Source: Candidatus Poseidoniaceae archaeon
Lineage (GTDB): Archaea > Thermoplasmatota > Poseidoniia > Poseidoniales > Poseidoniaceae
Assembly: GCA_045568435.1 (NCBI GenBank)
Contig: JBJLBB010000001.1
Coordinates: 100,305-164,304 of the forward strand
Length of the DNA: 64,000 nucleotides
Direction: 5' to 3'
The translations under genes and the position numbers were made by a program. The notes below the pieces were generated by a model that made no database searches, was not told the DNA's origin, and saw only the letters and a program-made list of their open reading frames with translations. How positions within the stretch are numbered: position 1 is the stretch's first letter; each line of letters begins with the position of its first letter. Positions 7,099 through 32,499 of this stretch are shown here, piece after piece.

Positions 7099-7881
7099 AT
7101 TACCAATACTGAAAAAACCCCAATATCCCGTTGGAATGGTATTTCTACAGAAATTGAAACAGATGAATTAGCTTGTGAAGCATTAATCATTTTAAATTAT
7201 AATGAAACCGTGATTGCTAATTTACTAGGAACTCCTGCAGATATTCATGAATTGATGATAGGCCACCTTGTATGTGAGGGCTATCTAAATTCAAACTTAG
7301 AATTTCTTAAGGAGAGTTTATTTCAAGTTGAATTATCATCAAAAAGTTTCCTTGCAAAAATTTCTTCTGAACAAACAATTACTAATCCAGATAATTCTAA
7401 TCGTTTAGTCACTTCTTCATGTGGGGCTTGTAATAACGATGATTTAGAACAGTTGATTTCTGATTTACCTCTTATTGAAAAAGATATGAGGGCGGTAGAT
7501 TTCGAATCACTCAATCGATTATTCAGTTCAATGAGAGAATTTCAGAAAGGTTTCCAATCAACCGGAGGAATGCATGCAGCAGGAATAACAGATTTAAATG
7601 GTAATTTATTATATGTCATGGAAGATATCGGCAGACATAATGCCGTAGACAAAGTAATTGGTAAAGCATTGAAAGAGGACATAGATATTTCAAAGAGTCA
7701 ATTATTGCTATCCGGTCGATGTGGCTGGGATATTGTTGCTAAGGCAAGTAGATGTGGAGTTCCAAATATTGTTAGTATTGGTGCTTGCTCATCTCTGGCC
7801 GCTAAAGCCGCTAGATACACTGGGGTCCGATTAATTTCATTCCTCAAACCCGATAATGCCGTCATAATCGGCCATAATTAG
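7099..7881 (+). CDS. fdhD: Formate dehydrogenase accessory sulfurtransferase, inferred ATT start
   Basis: SSCGAC, TGGMHAAG, EDIGRHNAVDKVIG, SGR. The FdhD-like N-terminus (DELACE...GTP.DIHELMIGHL.CEG) extends 37 codons upstream of GTG 7210 with no ATG/GTG/TTG and an in-frame stop at 7087. Confidence 0.88.
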   Translation: MTNTEKTPISRWNGISTEIETDELACEALIILNYNETVIANLLGTPADIHELMIGHLVCEGYLNSNLEFLKESLFQVELSSKSFLAKISSEQTITNPDNSNRLVTSSCGACNNDDLEQLISDLPLIEKDMRAVDFESLNRLFSSMREFQKGFQSTGGMHAAGITDLNGNLLYVMEDIGRHNAVDKVIGKALKEDIDISKSQLLLSGRCGWDIVAKASRCGVPNIVSIGACSSLAAKAARYTGVRLISFLKPDNAVIIGHN

Positions 7882-13547: not shown

Positions 13548-15092
13548 ATTACTACAATAACTCTTGATGGTAACACGCTATCTTCATCTGAGATTTGGCG
13601 CGTGGCTACTGGTAATGCTGAAGTTGACATCTCCCAAAGTTCTTGGGATAGAATTATCAAATCACGCAAGGTAGTTGAAGATATTTTACAAAGTGGGGAA
13701 ATTGTTTATGGAATCAATACTGGTTTTGGTGCACTAGTAAACCAAACAATTTCCGACAAAGATTTACAACAATTACAAGTTAATCTAATTCGTTCACATG
13801 CCACTGGAATCGGTGAATTAATGTCGAAAGAGTCTGTTAGGGCTATGATGACTGCAAGAATTAATTCATTTGCTAAAGGTTACTCAGGAGTCCACCCTAA
13901 TGTAGTCCAACAATTACTCGACTTCATCAACTTAGACATTACGCCAGCTATACCGCGTATCGGTAGCCTCGGTGCCAGTGGTGATTTAGCACCTCTTTCG
14001 CATATGGCATTAGCATTGATAGGAGAGGGTGAAGTATTAATTGAAGGAAATAAAGTTTCTAAAACTAAAGAGGTTATAGTTGAAAAGGGACTTATACCGC
14101 TAGAATTGGGTGCAAAGGATGGTTTATCGCTAATCAATGGTACAAGTCAAATGTTGAGTTTACTAGTAGAGTCAGAACAAATTCTCTCACAATTACTACC
14201 ACTTGCTGACATCATAATGTGTGCTTCTCTAGAGGCATTCAAAGGAACAGCAGTTCCTGCAGATTCTAGAGTTCATGATGCAAGGCCTCACCCGGGGCAA
14301 AAATTAGTGGCATCTAGAATAAGACAAATCATGTCACAGTCAGAAATACTTGCTAGTCACGCAGATTGTGGTAAAGTGCAAGACCCTTACTCATTTAGGT
14401 GTGCACCACAAGTACATGGGGCAGTAAATGAAAGCCTAATGCAACTAAGGTCGACGTTGGAAATTGAAATCAACAGCACCACAGATAATCCATTAGTGTT
14501 TTTTGATAGTGAAGATGATGAGCAAAAGATTGTTTCTCAAGGTAATTTCCATGGAGAAATATTAGGATTAGTAGCAGATAAAATGTCACTTTCTATCTTT
14601 GAATTGGCTTCTATAAGTGAGAGAAGGATGGATCAATTGCTCGATAATAAGAAAAGTGGACTGCCGCCATTTTTAGCTTCTAACAGCGGTCTTGAATCAG
14701 GACTCATGATTGTACAATATGTCGCAGGTGCGTCCTTGTCTGAACTTCATGGCCATGCAGCACCCAGGACAGCATTCTCAACCAGTACTTCTGCTGGACA
14801 AGAAGACCATGTTAGCATGGGCGCAACTGCCTGTTGGAATTTATTACAAGCAACTCAAAGATTGTCTGAAGTACTTGCTTGCGAACTACTTATTGCTTGC
14901 CAAGCACTGGAATTCGAAAGTTTAAAACCATCACCATTCATCCAATCAATTGTTAAATTAGTGAGAGATATTTCACCAAAAATTGAATCTGATAGATCCA
15001 CTAGTAGTGATTTAATTGCAATTTCTAATTCTCTTAAAGAAGGCGGATGGCTATCTAGAATTGAAGCAGAGAATAGTAGACTTTCTAATTAG
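13548..15092 (+). CDS. hutH: Histidine ammonia-lyase, inferred ATT start
   Basis: VYGINTGFG, MIO-forming GASGDLAPL, QDPYSFRC.PQVHG, GNFHG, QEDHVSMG. The typical N-terminus TITLDGNTLS lies upstream of GTG 13602 with no canonical start codon in frame. Confidence 0.93.
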   Translation: MTTITLDGNTLSSSEIWRVATGNAEVDISQSSWDRIIKSRKVVEDILQSGEIVYGINTGFGALVNQTISDKDLQQLQVNLIRSHATGIGELMSKESVRAMMTARINSFAKGYSGVHPNVVQQLLDFINLDITPAIPRIGSLGASGDLAPLSHMALALIGEGEVLIEGNKVSKTKEVIVEKGLIPLELGAKDGLSLINGTSQMLSLLVESEQILSQLLPLADIIMCASLEAFKGTAVPADSRVHDARPHPGQKLVASRIRQIMSQSEILASHADCGKVQDPYSFRCAPQVHGAVNESLMQLRSTLEIEINSTTDNPLVFFDSEDDEQKIVSQGNFHGEILGLVADKMSLSIFELASISERRMDQLLDNKKSGLPPFLASNSGLESGLMIVQYVAGASLSELHGHAAPRTAFSTSTSAGQEDHVSMGATACWNLLQATQRLSEVLACELLIACQALEFESLKPSPFIQSIVKLVRDISPKIESDRSTSSDLIAISNSLKEGGWLSRIEAENSRLSN

Positions 15093-21954: not shown

Positions 21955-22041
21955 GGCTGATTTAGAAGCCAATGGTTTTAAGAGGTCGTCTTAGGGCTAA
22001 TATTAGGGGAATGCTGTATCGCAGGTAGAAGGAAGAAAGAT

Positions 22042-22884
22042 TTGCCTCTGAACCCTTTTGCGCGCAATGCTGCTGCTGAGAGAAATAAACGCCAAGCTGA
22101 CAGAGCTAATATGCGCAAAAGAGAGGAGTTAGCCACAGCGCAAGCACCTGCAAAACCTCAATCCAAGAATACCAGTAATATTCTAGCAGAAATGCAAAAA
22201 AAAGCCGCAAAGCAATTGCAAAATGACAATATTGTTACTACCGAGGCTGAGCAAAAAGCCGTCCAATTACCAGAGCCAACAATAATCGTCAAGAAAAAAA
22301 TTGATGTTGAAGAAAAAGTTAAGTCTGATATACGCGAAGAACTAAATCGAAAAACAGCAGAGGCCAATAAAAAATATCAAGAAATTGCGTCTAATGTGAC
22401 TGAAGAAACACCTCAAGTTGAATCAATTGCCGTAGAACTAGAAACCTCAGTAGAAGAAATCACTAATGCTGAAGTTGAACTTATAGAAGATAAGCCCACT
22501 TCTGATATCGAAGAAGTTTCCAAGGGTGCAAAAAATGTTTTCAAAACAGTTGAACAGACCAAGAAGCCATCTGTCACAGGTGATCGCCGCAAGCGTAAGC
22601 GTAGAATGGACAAGAAAGGTGGCGGGCGTCAAAAAATGGAAAAGAAACTGAATCGACAAAAGATTTTGGCGTTCAAATATTTTGCCAGAGATTTACTCGA
22701 TGACCCGAATATTCCTGAAGAACACCGATCTAACGTTTTAGGTCAAATTATTGCAAAGGGAGAAAGGACAAGCATAGAATCAGCAATCGAATTCATCAAT
22801 CAAAAACGCGATGAATTAATTCTTACTGAAGAAGTGGCAAAATCACTTATCAGTGAGATAAAAAGTATGACGACAAGAAGGTGA
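22042..22884 (+). CDS. Hypothetical protein, low-complexity N-terminal half and basic helical C-terminal domain
   Basis: 280-codon ORF with TTG start, between kae1 and slyD. Confidence 0.65.
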   Translation: MPLNPFARNAAAERNKRQADRANMRKREELATAQAPAKPQSKNTSNILAEMQKKAAKQLQNDNIVTTEAEQKAVQLPEPTIIVKKKIDVEEKVKSDIREELNRKTAEANKKYQEIASNVTEETPQVESIAVELETSVEEITNAEVELIEDKPTSDIEEVSKGAKNVFKTVEQTKKPSVTGDRRKRKRRMDKKGGGRQKMEKKLNRQKILAFKYFARDLLDDPNIPEEHRSNVLGQIIAKGERTSIESAIEFINQKRDELILTEEVAKSLISEIKSMTTRR

Positions 22885-29516: not shown

Positions 29517-29533
29517 TAGTGGCAGGATTAGTC

Positions 29534-29713
29534 ATGCCTAAAGTTTCACTTGACATGCCTGCTGAGATTATCGGCGATCTAAGATTACATGTTGGCGATG
29601 AAAGGAAATTCGTTAGCCTAGCCGATGCAATAAGGACTGCCTGTAGAAAATTACTCGACCAATTAGATGACATTGATTCGAGGCATGGAAGAAATAATGG
29701 AGGAGATTTATAA
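29534..29713 (+). CDS. Ribbon-helix-helix (CopG/MetJ-like) regulator
   Basis: MPKVSLDMP beta-ribbon, then helices IIGDLRLHV and SLADAIRTACRKLL; its stop overlaps the folE ATG (TAATG). Confidence 0.75.
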   Translation: MPKVSLDMPAEIIGDLRLHVGDERKFVSLADAIRTACRKLLDQLDDIDSRHGRNNGGDL

Positions 29714-30282
29714 TGACTACAAGAGATGAAGCAATGGAGGCTGTTAGCACTTTACTTTCATATTTAGAAAAGGATTACAAACGTGAAGGACTACTATCAA
29801 CTCCCAAAAGAGTTGTAGATTCTTGGGATGAAATTTTTTCGGGATATAATGAAAACTCAGGTGAGATATTAGATGCGACATTCAATGGAGAAGGGTACGA
29901 TGGTATCGTTTTACTTAGAGATATAGAATTTCATTCGACATGTGAACATCACCTGCAACCATTCAATGGTAGGGCTCATGTTGCATACATACCAGTTGAC
30001 AGAATAGTTGGGATAAGTAAACTATCGAGAATTGTTGATCTACATGCTAAGAGATTGCAAAACCAAGAGCGAATAACAAAAGGAATCGCTGATGACTTAG
30101 AGTCTCACTTATCACCACTTGGTGCTGCAGTAATTATTGAGGCATCACATGGCTGCATGCGATGTAGAGGTGTGAAGAAACAAAATGCTGTAATGACTAC
30201 ATCAGCAATGCGTGGAGTCTTTTTCGATAAGCAAGAGGCAAGACAGGAATTGATGCAGTTGATACAATCAAAACCACTCTGA
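29713..30282 (+). CDS. folE: GTP cyclohydrolase I
   Basis: STCEHHLQPF.G, GISKLSRIV, QNQERIT, HGCMRCRGV. Confidence 0.95.
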   Translation: MTTRDEAMEAVSTLLSYLEKDYKREGLLSTPKRVVDSWDEIFSGYNENSGEILDATFNGEGYDGIVLLRDIEFHSTCEHHLQPFNGRAHVAYIPVDRIVGISKLSRIVDLHAKRLQNQERITKGIADDLESHLSPLGAAVIIEASHGCMRCRGVKKQNAVMTTSAMRGVFFDKQEARQELMQLIQSKPL

Positions 30283-30305
30283 ACAATTAACGTAGAGGGA
30301 TTATT

Positions 30306-30902
30306 ATTACGACCTATCCAATTGTCGAAATTTTTCACTCTGTTCAAGGAGAAGCATATCACATGGGCAAGCCCCATGTTTTTGTACGATTTGGAAATTG
30401 TAATCTAAGATGCGAATGGTGTGACACAAACTTTCTAGAATATGATGAGATGGAGTTGCAAGACATTGTCAAACAGGTCCTTTCATATGGTTGCGAACGA
30501 GTGATATTTACTGGTGGAGAACCATGTCTACAAGATTTAGAAACTATCGGGAATGAATTGAAGAAATATGATCTTAACCTATCTGTTGAAACGAATGGAA
30601 CTATTGATGTCCCCGAGGTTATTGATTGGATATGTGTTTCACCTAAAGATCAATTATATCCAAACACTAAGATATCTCAAACCACAGGTAATGAATTGAA
30701 GGTAGTTTACTGTGGTCAAGACTTATCGATGTATGATAATTTGAAAGGTGGTTTTACACACCTTTACTTACAACCTTGCTATATTGAAAGCATGTCTGTA
30801 GAAGAGAATGGCAAGAACTTCGCACTTGTTGAAGAATTAGTAAAAAATAATCCTGGGTGGAGGTTATCTCTCCAGACTCATAAATGGATGGGGGTAGACT
30901 AA
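30306..30902 (+). CDS. queE: 7-carboxy-7-deazaguanine synthase (radical SAM), inferred ATT start
   Basis: CNLRCEWC, FTGGEP, ETNGT, CVSPK, RLSLQTHK. The conserved IVEIFHSVQGE lies upstream of ATG 30363, with an in-frame stop at 30288 and no ATG/GTG/TTG between. Confidence 0.92.
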   Translation: MTTYPIVEIFHSVQGEAYHMGKPHVFVRFGNCNLRCEWCDTNFLEYDEMELQDIVKQVLSYGCERVIFTGGEPCLQDLETIGNELKKYDLNLSVETNGTIDVPEVIDWICVSPKDQLYPNTKISQTTGNELKVVYCGQDLSMYDNLKGGFTHLYLQPCYIESMSVEENGKNFALVEELVKNNPGWRLSLQTHKWMGVD

Positions 30903-32053
30903 TGAAAATCGCGGTAATGGCTCTCAGCGGAGGAATGGATTCTACATCATTGCTTCTTAGACTCCTAAATGAGGGGTACCAAGTTTACTGCATATCATAT
31001 GAATATGGTCAGAAGCACCGGGTTGAAGTAGATAGGTCGGCACTAAATATTGAGTATTTAAAATCAAAGAATTTTGACGTAGTGCATGAAATTGTAGATT
31101 TACAAGGTGCTATGAGTATATTCAATAGTTCATTGCTTAATGATGAATCTGATGTCCCTGAGGGGCATTATGAAGAGGAACAGATGAAATCAACAGTAGT
31201 TCCAAATCGGAATGCTATTTTTTCTTCGATATTGTATGGATATGCACTCTCAATAGCAGTAAAAAATAATGCAAATGTCAAAATTGCCTTGGGGGTTCAT
31301 TCAGGTGACCATGCAATTTATCCAGATTGTAGACCTCAATTCTATAATGCACTAGAACACGCTTTCCAAATTGGAAATTGGGATAGTGAAAAGGTATCCT
31401 TCGAATTGCCATATATCGATGGTGACAAAAAATCTATTCTTTTAGATGCACTAAAATCATGCGAAGCATTAGAAATTGATTTTGATACAATCTTTTCCAA
31501 TACTAATACCTCATATAATCCAGACTCCGAAGGGAGGAGTTCAGGTAAAAGCGGAGCTGATATTGAGCGTATATTAGCATTCAAAGCAATAGGTCGAGTA
31601 GATCCAGTCGAATATATCGATTCATGGGAAGTAGTACTATCAAACGCGGTGGAAGTTGAAATGCGACATAAAGACGAATATTATCGGGAAAAATTGACTG
31701 AATTGCAATATATTGTGACAAGGCAAGGTGGTACTGAAAGAGCATTTACTGGAATCTATGACAAAGAAAAACGTGATGGTGTTTATCGTTGTATTTGTTG
31801 CGACCATATTTTATTCACATCATCGAATAAATATGATTCAGGTTGTGGCTGGCCAGCATTCCATAGTGAGAGTGAAGATGCTGGAATATTACGGATACCA
31901 GACGATAGTATGGGCATGTTAAGAATTGAAGTTAGATGTTCCAAATGTGATGCACATTTAGGACATGTTTTCGAAGATGGTCCTCGGTCATTTGGTGGCG
32001 AAAGATACTGCATAAATTCAGCATCATTAAATTTCGAGGAGGAATCAATATGA
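30902..32053 (+). CDS. queC: QueC (7-cyano-7-deazaguanine synthase) fused to MsrB (methionine-R-sulfoxide reductase)
   Basis: QueC part: SGGMDS, VPNRN, YPDCRPQF. MsrB part from about M at 31661: GTERAFTG, CICC, GCGWPAF, CSKCDAHLGHVFEDGP, RYCINSAS. No stop codon between them. Confidence 0.92.
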   Translation: MKIAVMALSGGMDSTSLLLRLLNEGYQVYCISYEYGQKHRVEVDRSALNIEYLKSKNFDVVHEIVDLQGAMSIFNSSLLNDESDVPEGHYEEEQMKSTVVPNRNAIFSSILYGYALSIAVKNNANVKIALGVHSGDHAIYPDCRPQFYNALEHAFQIGNWDSEKVSFELPYIDGDKKSILLDALKSCEALEIDFDTIFSNTNTSYNPDSEGRSSGKSGADIERILAFKAIGRVDPVEYIDSWEVVLSNAVEVEMRHKDEYYREKLTELQYIVTRQGGTERAFTGIYDKEKRDGVYRCICCDHILFTSSNKYDSGCGWPAFHSESEDAGILRIPDDSMGMLRIEVRCSKCDAHLGHVFEDGPRSFGGERYCINSASLNFEEESI

Positions 32054-32499
32054 CAACATACATTAGAAGATACGTAGAAACTGACACCGGACACAGAGTC
32101 CCCAATCACAAGAGTAAATGTAAGCATATGCATGGCCATCGATACAGATTTGAAGCCGAAATCGAAGGTGATGTTGTGACTCAGAAAGGTGTTTCTGAGG
32201 AGGGTATGCTAATGGATTTTTCAGATATCAGCGAGATTCTGACAATACATATCCATGATGTAGTCGACCATGCATTTGTGGTCTATCAAGGAGATGAATT
32301 GGCCTTGAGGGCTTTGGAACTAATGGGTGATGGGCATCGAACTGTAATTGTGGATTTCATTCCAACTGCAGAAAATTTAGCTAAATGGGCATTTGAACAG
32401 ATCGAGCCTCTGATTTCTACAGCATATGGAAATAGGTTGAAACTCGTTGCCATGCATGTTCGTGAGACTCCGAAGAGTATTGCTACTTGGCGACCATAA
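32050..32499 (+). CDS. queD: 6-carboxy-5,6,7,8-tetrahydropterin synthase
   Basis: GHR....SKCKHMHGHRY, LMDFS, DH, PTAENLA, RETPKS. Confidence 0.92.
   Translation: MTTYIRRYVETDTGHRVPNHKSKCKHMHGHRYRFEAEIEGDVVTQKGVSEEGMLMDFSDISEILTIHIHDVVDHAFVVYQGDELALRALELMGDGHRTVIVDFIPTAENLAKWAFEQIEPLISTAYGNRLKLVAMHVRETPKSIATWRP

Follow-up and report, generated by a model that had tools for sequence, protein, structure and literature searches.

A probable AUU start codon for queE in a marine Poseidoniales archaeon, with candidate near-cognate starts in other genes

The window analysed here is a stretch of 64,000 nt (G000:C1:100305-164304) from the 2.1-Mb, 40% G+C genome of a Poseidoniaceae archaeon (G000) derived from marine metagenomes. 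It contains a compact set of genes of the preQ0 pathway, in which folE, queE, queC (fused to SelR) and queD are adjacent to each other. The features of this region that are needed below are the following:

29713-30282, + strand: folE (GTP cyclohydrolase I), an ORF with PF01227 found on the identical gene in eight assemblies; its stop codon TGA is at 30280-30282
30288-30290, + strand: TAA in the queE frame, closing this frame upstream (read from the sequence)
30294-30299, + strand: AGAGGG, a Shine-Dalgarno (SD)-like box with the core GAGG at 30295-30298, 4 nt from ATT 30306 in the register of the 16S rRNA tail
30300-30308, + strand: three tandem in-frame ATT codons, the third of which (30306-30308) is the proposed AUU start; ATG is found here in G011, G019 and L270-L273
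30306-30902, + strand: proposed full-length queE (7-carboxy-7-deazaguanine synthase), 198 codons plus a TAA stop
30309-30362, + strand: conserved QueE N-terminus TTYPIVEIFHSVQGEAYH, identified by profile and PDB alignments and in 29 orthologues, omitted in every gene call
30363-30365, + strand: internal ATG (Met20), the first canonical start and the one chosen by gene callers, leading to a 179-aa product
30903-32053, + strand: queC fused to an MsrB/SelR domain (PF06508 and PF01641), with its ATG directly after the queE stop (TAATG)
32050-32499, + strand: queD (6-carboxytetrahydropterin synthase, PTPS family; PF01242), overlapping queC by ATGA

The fusion of queC to a C-terminal MsrB/SelR domain (methionine sulfoxide reductase B) was observed in most of the independent assemblies examined, and a small ORF of 64 aa (29519-29713) that ends at the folE start with an ATAATGA overlap is likewise present in the independent assemblies examined.

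In the ORF listing, queE begins at 30363 and comprises 179 aa. Upstream of this position, its frame reads TAA (30288) CGT AGA GGG ATT (30300) ATT (30303) ATT (30306) ACG ACC TAT CCA ATT GTC GAA ATT, followed by TTT CAC TCT GTT CAA GGA GAA GCA TAT CAC and the ATG at 30363. Direct reading of the sequence agreed with the earlier note that ATG, GTG and TTG are absent between TAA 30288 and ATG 30363, where none of the 24 codons is canonical. A TTG at 30322 was considered and rejected as a start, as it lies out of frame and opens a frame of 27 codons only. Such a run is not rare in itself, since ATG, GTG and TTG make up 4.8% of in-frame codons and 19-24 codons without a canonical start triplet are expected in 31-39% of such stretches; it matters here because the encoded content is the N-terminus of QueE. 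Because the in-frame TAA at 30288 follows the folE stop, a ribosome slipping from the folE frame into that of queE would be stopped at this codon, which excludes a frameshift fusion with folE, an explanation that the earlier note had already discarded. The same note had placed the start context 23 nt behind the folE stop, and this distance is exact for the third ATT at 30306 (30283-30305) but does not apply to the AGAGGG box, which begins 11 nt after that stop.

The upstream stretch contributes to the recognition of the protein as QueE. The alignment with the QueE profile TIGR04508 begins at profile position 1, corresponding to the Y of YPIVEIF, and the score rose by 21 bits, from 121.8 to 142.8, once the upstream stretch was added. 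The alignment with B. multivorans QueE (PDB 4NJG) begins at native residue 2 of that protein and spans residues 3-197 of the query and 22-229 of the chain (E = 8.5e-27), and QueE of E. coli (PDB 6NHL) aligned likewise (E = 7.8e-23). The TIGR04508 and 4NJG alignments bear out the claim, made before any database search, that the QueE hallmark motif is encoded upstream of the ATG, and the similarity is full-length, with QGE and FVRF (containing the substrate-binding Arg) aligned with the solved structures. Compared with known QueE proteins (4NJG from B. multivorans, 6NHL from E. coli, 5TH5 from B. subtilis, and TIGR04508), the archaeal protein has in common QGE, the Arg of FVRF, GGEP, QTHKW, the radical-SAM motif CxxxCxxC (CNLRCEWC in the translation; PF04055 scored 44.5 bits, with a cut-off of 29.5) and the gene order folE-queE-queC-queD. 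It differs from them in lacking a canonical start codon, in the short CxxxCxxC spacing in place of the Cx14CxxC of the best-matching model, and in scores below the curated cut-offs: the best TIGR04508 score, 142.8 bits, compares with a cut-off of 240, and all five NCBIfam QueE models remained below theirs. The top profile matches were all QueE models, and the nearest non-QueE match was MoaA with only 35.7 bits.

The 19 residues missing from the 179-residue form include the Q and E (Q13 and E15) of the substrate-binding QGE motif. According to the residue roles described for QueE (PMC11142719, PMC5347944), the substrate contacts in the E. coli enzyme are Q13, E15 and R27, and the E15A substitution destabilises the protein (PMC11142719). 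Overexpressed Q13A and E15A variants still yielded Q-tRNA (PMC11142719), so individual side chains of the N-terminus are not an absolute requirement. Because these single mutants kept Q-tRNA, inactivity of the truncated 179-residue QueE is likely rather than proven.

When 40 related genomes were searched in all six frames, 36 proved to contain queE, and for the 29 loci that were oriented we read the codons upstream of YPIVEIF. The N-terminal TTYPIVEIFHSVQGEAYH region is kept in all 29 orthologues. ATG, GTG or TTG is located 2-4 codons before YPIVEIF or further upstream in these 29 orthologues and in the four L270-L273 contigs, with G026 and G035 as the exceptions; in genomes of other families, the canonical start lies 2-4 codons before the Tyr of YPIVEIF. 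Most same-genus queE genes begin ~23 codons earlier and have an extra N-terminal peptide. This peptide of ~20 residues (M..C..SGD.PVD..TDLA) was seen in L014-L030 and is absent from G000, G011, G019 and the other families. The queE start reads AAT ATG GCA ACA TAT in G011, AAT ATG TCT GTC TAT in G019 and TTATT ATG CCT ACT TAT on the four contigs L270-L273, which belong to an 85%-identical metagenomic relative; the ATG of the latter stands 23 nt after the folE TGA and behind TTATT, both exactly as at ATT 30306. Hence, the nucleotide-level alignment of orthologues, which the earlier note had proposed as a check, placed an ATG precisely at the position of ATT 30306 in G011, G019 and the 85%-identical relative, and ATT 30306 is therefore the orthologous start position.

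Furthermore, the codons between this position and ATG 30363 show mostly silent changes. Among codons 2-19, there are 8 synonymous and 1 non-synonymous differing codons in comparison with L270 and 11 synonymous and 2 non-synonymous ones in comparison with G011, and within the species all three changes upstream of ATG 30363 in L199 are synonymous, including an ATC at 30306. Thus, the stretch continues to evolve in the manner of a coding sequence. The Met at 30363 is common to the closest relatives only and is replaced by T, S or A in more distant orthologues. The earlier note had allowed that the truncated protein might turn out to be the conserved form; instead, it is the full-length form that is conserved in every relative. 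The ATT would have arisen from an ancestral ATG by a G-to-T change of the third base, presumably after the split from the closest sequenced relatives, and it is present in all examined assemblies of the species.

Several other queE loci deserve mention in their own right. The queE gene of G026 (L010, G026:C2), a genome of another family, reads TGA GGT GAG CAA CTG ACC CAA ACC TAC and has no canonical start codon ahead of YPIVEIF; G040 (L011) has TTG at the place of this CTG, and G026 represents a second, independent near-cognate start in queE. In G035, CTG is found at the start place together with a GTG 11 codons before the Tyr. The gene of G019 (L093, G019:C3:155580-156170) has its ATG start and is split over three frames with internal stops, being either a pseudogene or affected by assembly indel errors. 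Among the 150-residue cluster members, P0015 was considered as another start-less lineage; its contigs carry ATG ATG AAT TAT CCC, which traces the missing start to a poor gene call. No record was found for the cluster member P0008.

We then compared the ribosome-binding context of the possible starts. The 3′ end of the 16S rRNA is GGATCACCTCCT, and its tail GGAGGTGA sets the register. The spacing, counted between the A of the GGTGA-aligned position and the start, was determined for the genes whose SD match spans 5 nt or more, and genome-wide it peaks sharply at 4 nt (171/402 genes). The sites in queE compare as follows:

ATT 30306: GAGG (match of only 4 nt), register 4, which is the genome mode and a functional spacing
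ATT 30303: GAGG (4 nt), register 1
ATG 30363: AGGAG (5 nt), register 7, suboptimal

Across the genome, SD boxes were not significantly enriched at in-frame ATT codons that precede the first canonical start (5/296 against a background of 0.9%), and ATT could not be told apart from other codons; the test is diluted too far, an SD being absent from about half of the genes. The case for the putative ATT starts rests on homology rather than on SD statistics. An unusual initiator tRNA was also considered and set aside, as aragorn found two CAT tRNAs, one Ile-GAT tRNA and nothing odd.

The orthologous ATG position and the SD register support the reading, first put forward from the letters of the sequence, that queE starts at ATT 30306 upstream of the sole ATG. 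Thus, queE is probably translated from a near-cognate AUU, most likely ATT 30306, and its product would be a full-length QueE of 198 residues. ATT 30300 and ATT 30303 are possible alternate start candidates, and the ATC at 30306 in L199 weighs against regarding the choice among the three codons as settled, with 30306 being the most likely one. The predicted N-terminal tryptic peptide of the AUU-started protein is (M)TTYPIVEIFHSVQGEAYHMGK, and a product from ATG 30363 would begin with MGKPHVF.

Alternatively, translation could start only at ATG 30363, yielding a 179-residue QueE without strand 1 and QGE, which would be a loss-of-function or strongly hypomorphic form encoded by a decaying gene. 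This ATG is the sole canonical start and has AGGAG 7 nt upstream in an SD register, but the AGGAG arises from the codons for Q-G-E, is not conserved and is destroyed in L199 (GGA to GGC) without consequence, and the Met itself is lost in more distant orthologues. AUU is a weak start in E. coli, with ~0.3% of the activity of ATG according to a value that PMC10666635 cites from Hecht 2017; against this stand the intact remainder of queE and the intact folE-queE-queC-queD operon in every assembly, as well as the 19 upstream codons, with synonymous changes only within the species and ratios of 8:1 and 11:2 against relatives. The frame changes and stops that break queE in the closest genome, G019, could point to decay, but they resemble the indel errors common in these assemblies, and the lost Q13 and E15 bind the substrate, with E15A destabilising E. 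coli QueE (PMC11142719). We consider it unlikely that ATG 30363 is the only start. With an AGGAG of its own, spaced suboptimally but within a usable range, this ATG may also give rise to a truncated product.

A use of both starts would combine a minor amount of active full-length QueE from the AUU with more of the truncated form from AUG 30363, the latter having no role or a separate one. There is an SD-like box at each site, and isoforms are conceivable in view of the second, non-catalytic function of QueE in E. coli (PMC11142719); however, conservation is lacking for both the internal Met and its SD, and a radical-SAM barrel without its first strand would be unlikely to fold, which makes this arrangement rather improbable.

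The sequence of the start region itself is well supported. Eight independent assemblies, originating from eight places among Tara Oceans and other ENA metagenomes, two GenBank MAGs and one Logan assembly, carry GAGGG ATT ATT ATT ACG, save for L199 with ATT ATT ATC, and the ATG at 30306 that the earlier note had named as a possible outcome occurs in none of them. In the assembly collection, 99 blocks contain exactly this 179-residue product, NCBI entries included, whereas QueE forms of this species with 198, 199 or 200 residues are absent from a collection of 15 billion proteins. A motif-driven misreading of ATTATGAC as ATTATTAC was rejected, since ATTATGAC occurs 130 times in the genome and independent assemblies agree. 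Although many genes of the assembly are split and 34 ORFs match G009 proteins in their interior only, it is exceedingly improbable that an ATG was turned into ATT by an error of sequencing or assembly, given the base-for-base agreement of eight independent assemblies that stem from different projects and samples, that the 179-aa call recurs in the 99 blocks, and that the errors seen in the genome are indels, not substitutions. These 34 ORFs were found genome-wide, have no nearby canonical start and match longer G009 proteins as expected for frameshift-split genes.

We also surveyed all 1731 ORFs of G000 against the same-genus genome G009, at first for the first 790 kb and later for the whole genome; the very close G019, syntenic over 120 kb, was dropped as comparator because intergenic DNA aligns as well and the HSP extension is uninformative. 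Four further genes of G000 have homology-supported ATT starts, namely fdhD, hutH, g0|438 and g0|752, of which g0|438 and g0|752 emerged from the G009 survey, and hutH, g0|438 and g0|752 have them in common with sister species as ATT or ATC:

7099-7881 of the window, + strand: fdhD with the proposed ATT start at 7099, GAGGTGA TATT ATT ACC; first canonical start 37 codons downstream
13548-15092 of the window, + strand: hutH with the proposed ATT start at 13548, GGGGAGTGA AATT ATT ACT, 4 nt after the hutU stop
C1:165713 of G000: g0|752, GGTGA TTTT ATT; first canonical start 103 codons downstream
C2:46818 of G000: g0|438, TGA ATT TCA

At the fdhD start place, G019 and G011 read TGA GGT GAx AAx ATG where G000 has TGA GGT GAT ATT ATT ACC. 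The start of hutH is ATT also in G019 (ATT ATT TCA) and G011 (TTT ATT TCG) and ATG in all other relatives; this agreement of three separately assembled species argues strongly that the hutH ATT would work as a start codon. Hence, by the G019 and G011 alignments, the other two of the three AUU cases singled out by the earlier note, fdhD and hutH, hold as well. The start codon of g0|752 is ATT in G019, ATG in G011 and ATC in G003, G004 and G008, and that of g0|438 is ATT in G019, ATC in G011 and ATG, GTG or TTG in 27 others. The SD register is 4 in all five strong ATT cases (queE, fdhD, hutH, g0|438 and g0|752). The predicted N-terminal peptides are (M)TNTEK... for fdhD and (M)ITTITLDGNTLSSSEIWR or (M)TTITLDGNTLSSSEIWR for hutH. 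Weaker candidates are ATT in g0|1046 and g0|201, ATA in g0|578 and CTG in g0|1183, each with a canonical start a few codons downstream, and near-cognate start candidates amount to ~9 of 1441 comparable genes (0.6%). It is an evenly balanced question whether this genus of marine group II (Poseidoniales-type) archaea tolerates and keeps near-cognate working starts in ~0.3-0.6% of its genes, with AUU/AUC in this species and its sisters and CUG/AUC in G009.

Some further observations concern G000 and G009. Of the five ATT starts with good support, four are confined to 58 kb of a single contig and share one strand (C1:107403, 113852, 130610 and 165713), a clustering that is less extreme once the weaker candidates are added (four on C2 and one at C1:607326). 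The candidates in G009 comprise three or four CTG codons, one of them behind AGGAGG in register 4, and two ATC codons, at places where G000 has ATG (C1:52669 on the + strand; C2:564492, C3:56355, C1:87744 and C1:191765 on the - strand). In g0|880 (21982-22881 of the window, + strand), a conserved GE..I.G.RRKKD is encoded upstream of the first canonical start (TTG, codon 21); G019 and G009 have TTG where G000 reads ATA or TTA, and the SD register does not fit. The ORF g0|1019 (G000 C2:494721, - strand) consists of ATG, 7 codons, an in-frame TAA and then 152 codons without ATG, GTG or TTG, 128 of which match a G009 membrane protein at 58% identity; possible explanations are a nonsense mutation, read-through of the stop codon and an error.

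The position of these starts behind upstream genes invites comparison with the archaeal coupling by termination-reinitiation (Huber et al. 2019; PMC10666635), which likewise operates in tight operons. In Haloferax volcanii, termination-reinitiation was abolished at a distance of 22-23 nt (PMC10666635), and because the folE-queE gap has this size, reinitiation from folE to queE appears unlikely. Likewise, when reinitiation pairs are taken as genes with an overlap or a gap of at most ~10 nt (PMC10666635), folE-queE with its 23 nt falls outside this range and tsr3-fdhD and hutU-hutH, with a 4-nt gap each, fall within it. The ATT starts of fdhD and hutH, 4 nt after the upstream stop and with the SD box overlapping this stop, resemble reinitiation coupling in archaea, and such coupling is plausible for both genes. 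The arrangement of queE differs from it by its wider gap, so SD-led initiation is the better model for queE.

AUU starts are established in bacteria, and ATT is a permitted start codon in NCBI translation table 11. At the AUU starts of E. coli infC, encoding IF3, and pcnB, encoding poly(A) polymerase I, the initiator Met-tRNA pairs with AUU despite the mismatch at the third base. As in these two genes, a conserved protein of our archaeon appears to begin at an AUU behind an SD box, related species have AUG or another canonical start at this place, and low expression is expected. Unlike infC and pcnB, queE resides in an archaeal host, where the start is selected by aIF1 and aIF2 rather than by IF3; it encodes a tRNA-modification enzyme and shows no sign of autoregulation; its start lies in a run of three ATTs in a lineage that has several such starts, some of them conserved across species; and its AUU start is predicted from sequence. 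In the proposed mechanism, the 30S subunit would be placed by the GAGG box at the optimal register of this genome, the initiator Met-tRNA would pair with AUU in the same mismatched manner and the protein would begin with Met. The tandem ATTs may give extra in-frame chances of initiation. The output would probably be much lower than from AUG; as a radical-SAM enzyme, QueE is required in no more than catalytic amounts, and the gene could represent a low-expression allele.

A literature search joining Poseidoniales with start codons found nothing, and one on AUU start codons and archaea found no archaeal AUU start in the parts of the sources that were available; an archaeal ribosome-profiling study left out near-cognate starts as possible false positives (PMC7261190). 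What is less ordinary here is the archaeal host, the presence of several near-cognate starts conserved across species and the fact that public catalogues hold the clipped protein only. Clipped N-termini also affect fdhD, hutH and others. Gene callers clip these proteins, and the clipped enzymes are thereby passed on to predictions of pathways and structures in abundant ocean archaea. The AUU and AUC starts that are found across species provide a comparative handle on near-cognate initiation in archaea, and, if they are weak, they would mark operon-internal genes with translationally lowered expression. If the genus-wide pattern is true, start-codon selection, presumably via aIF1, would be looser than assumed for archaea, or, alternatively, near-cognate starts would be a deliberate low-expression setting for certain operon-internal genes; standard gene callers would then systematically truncate such proteins in ocean metagenome catalogues.
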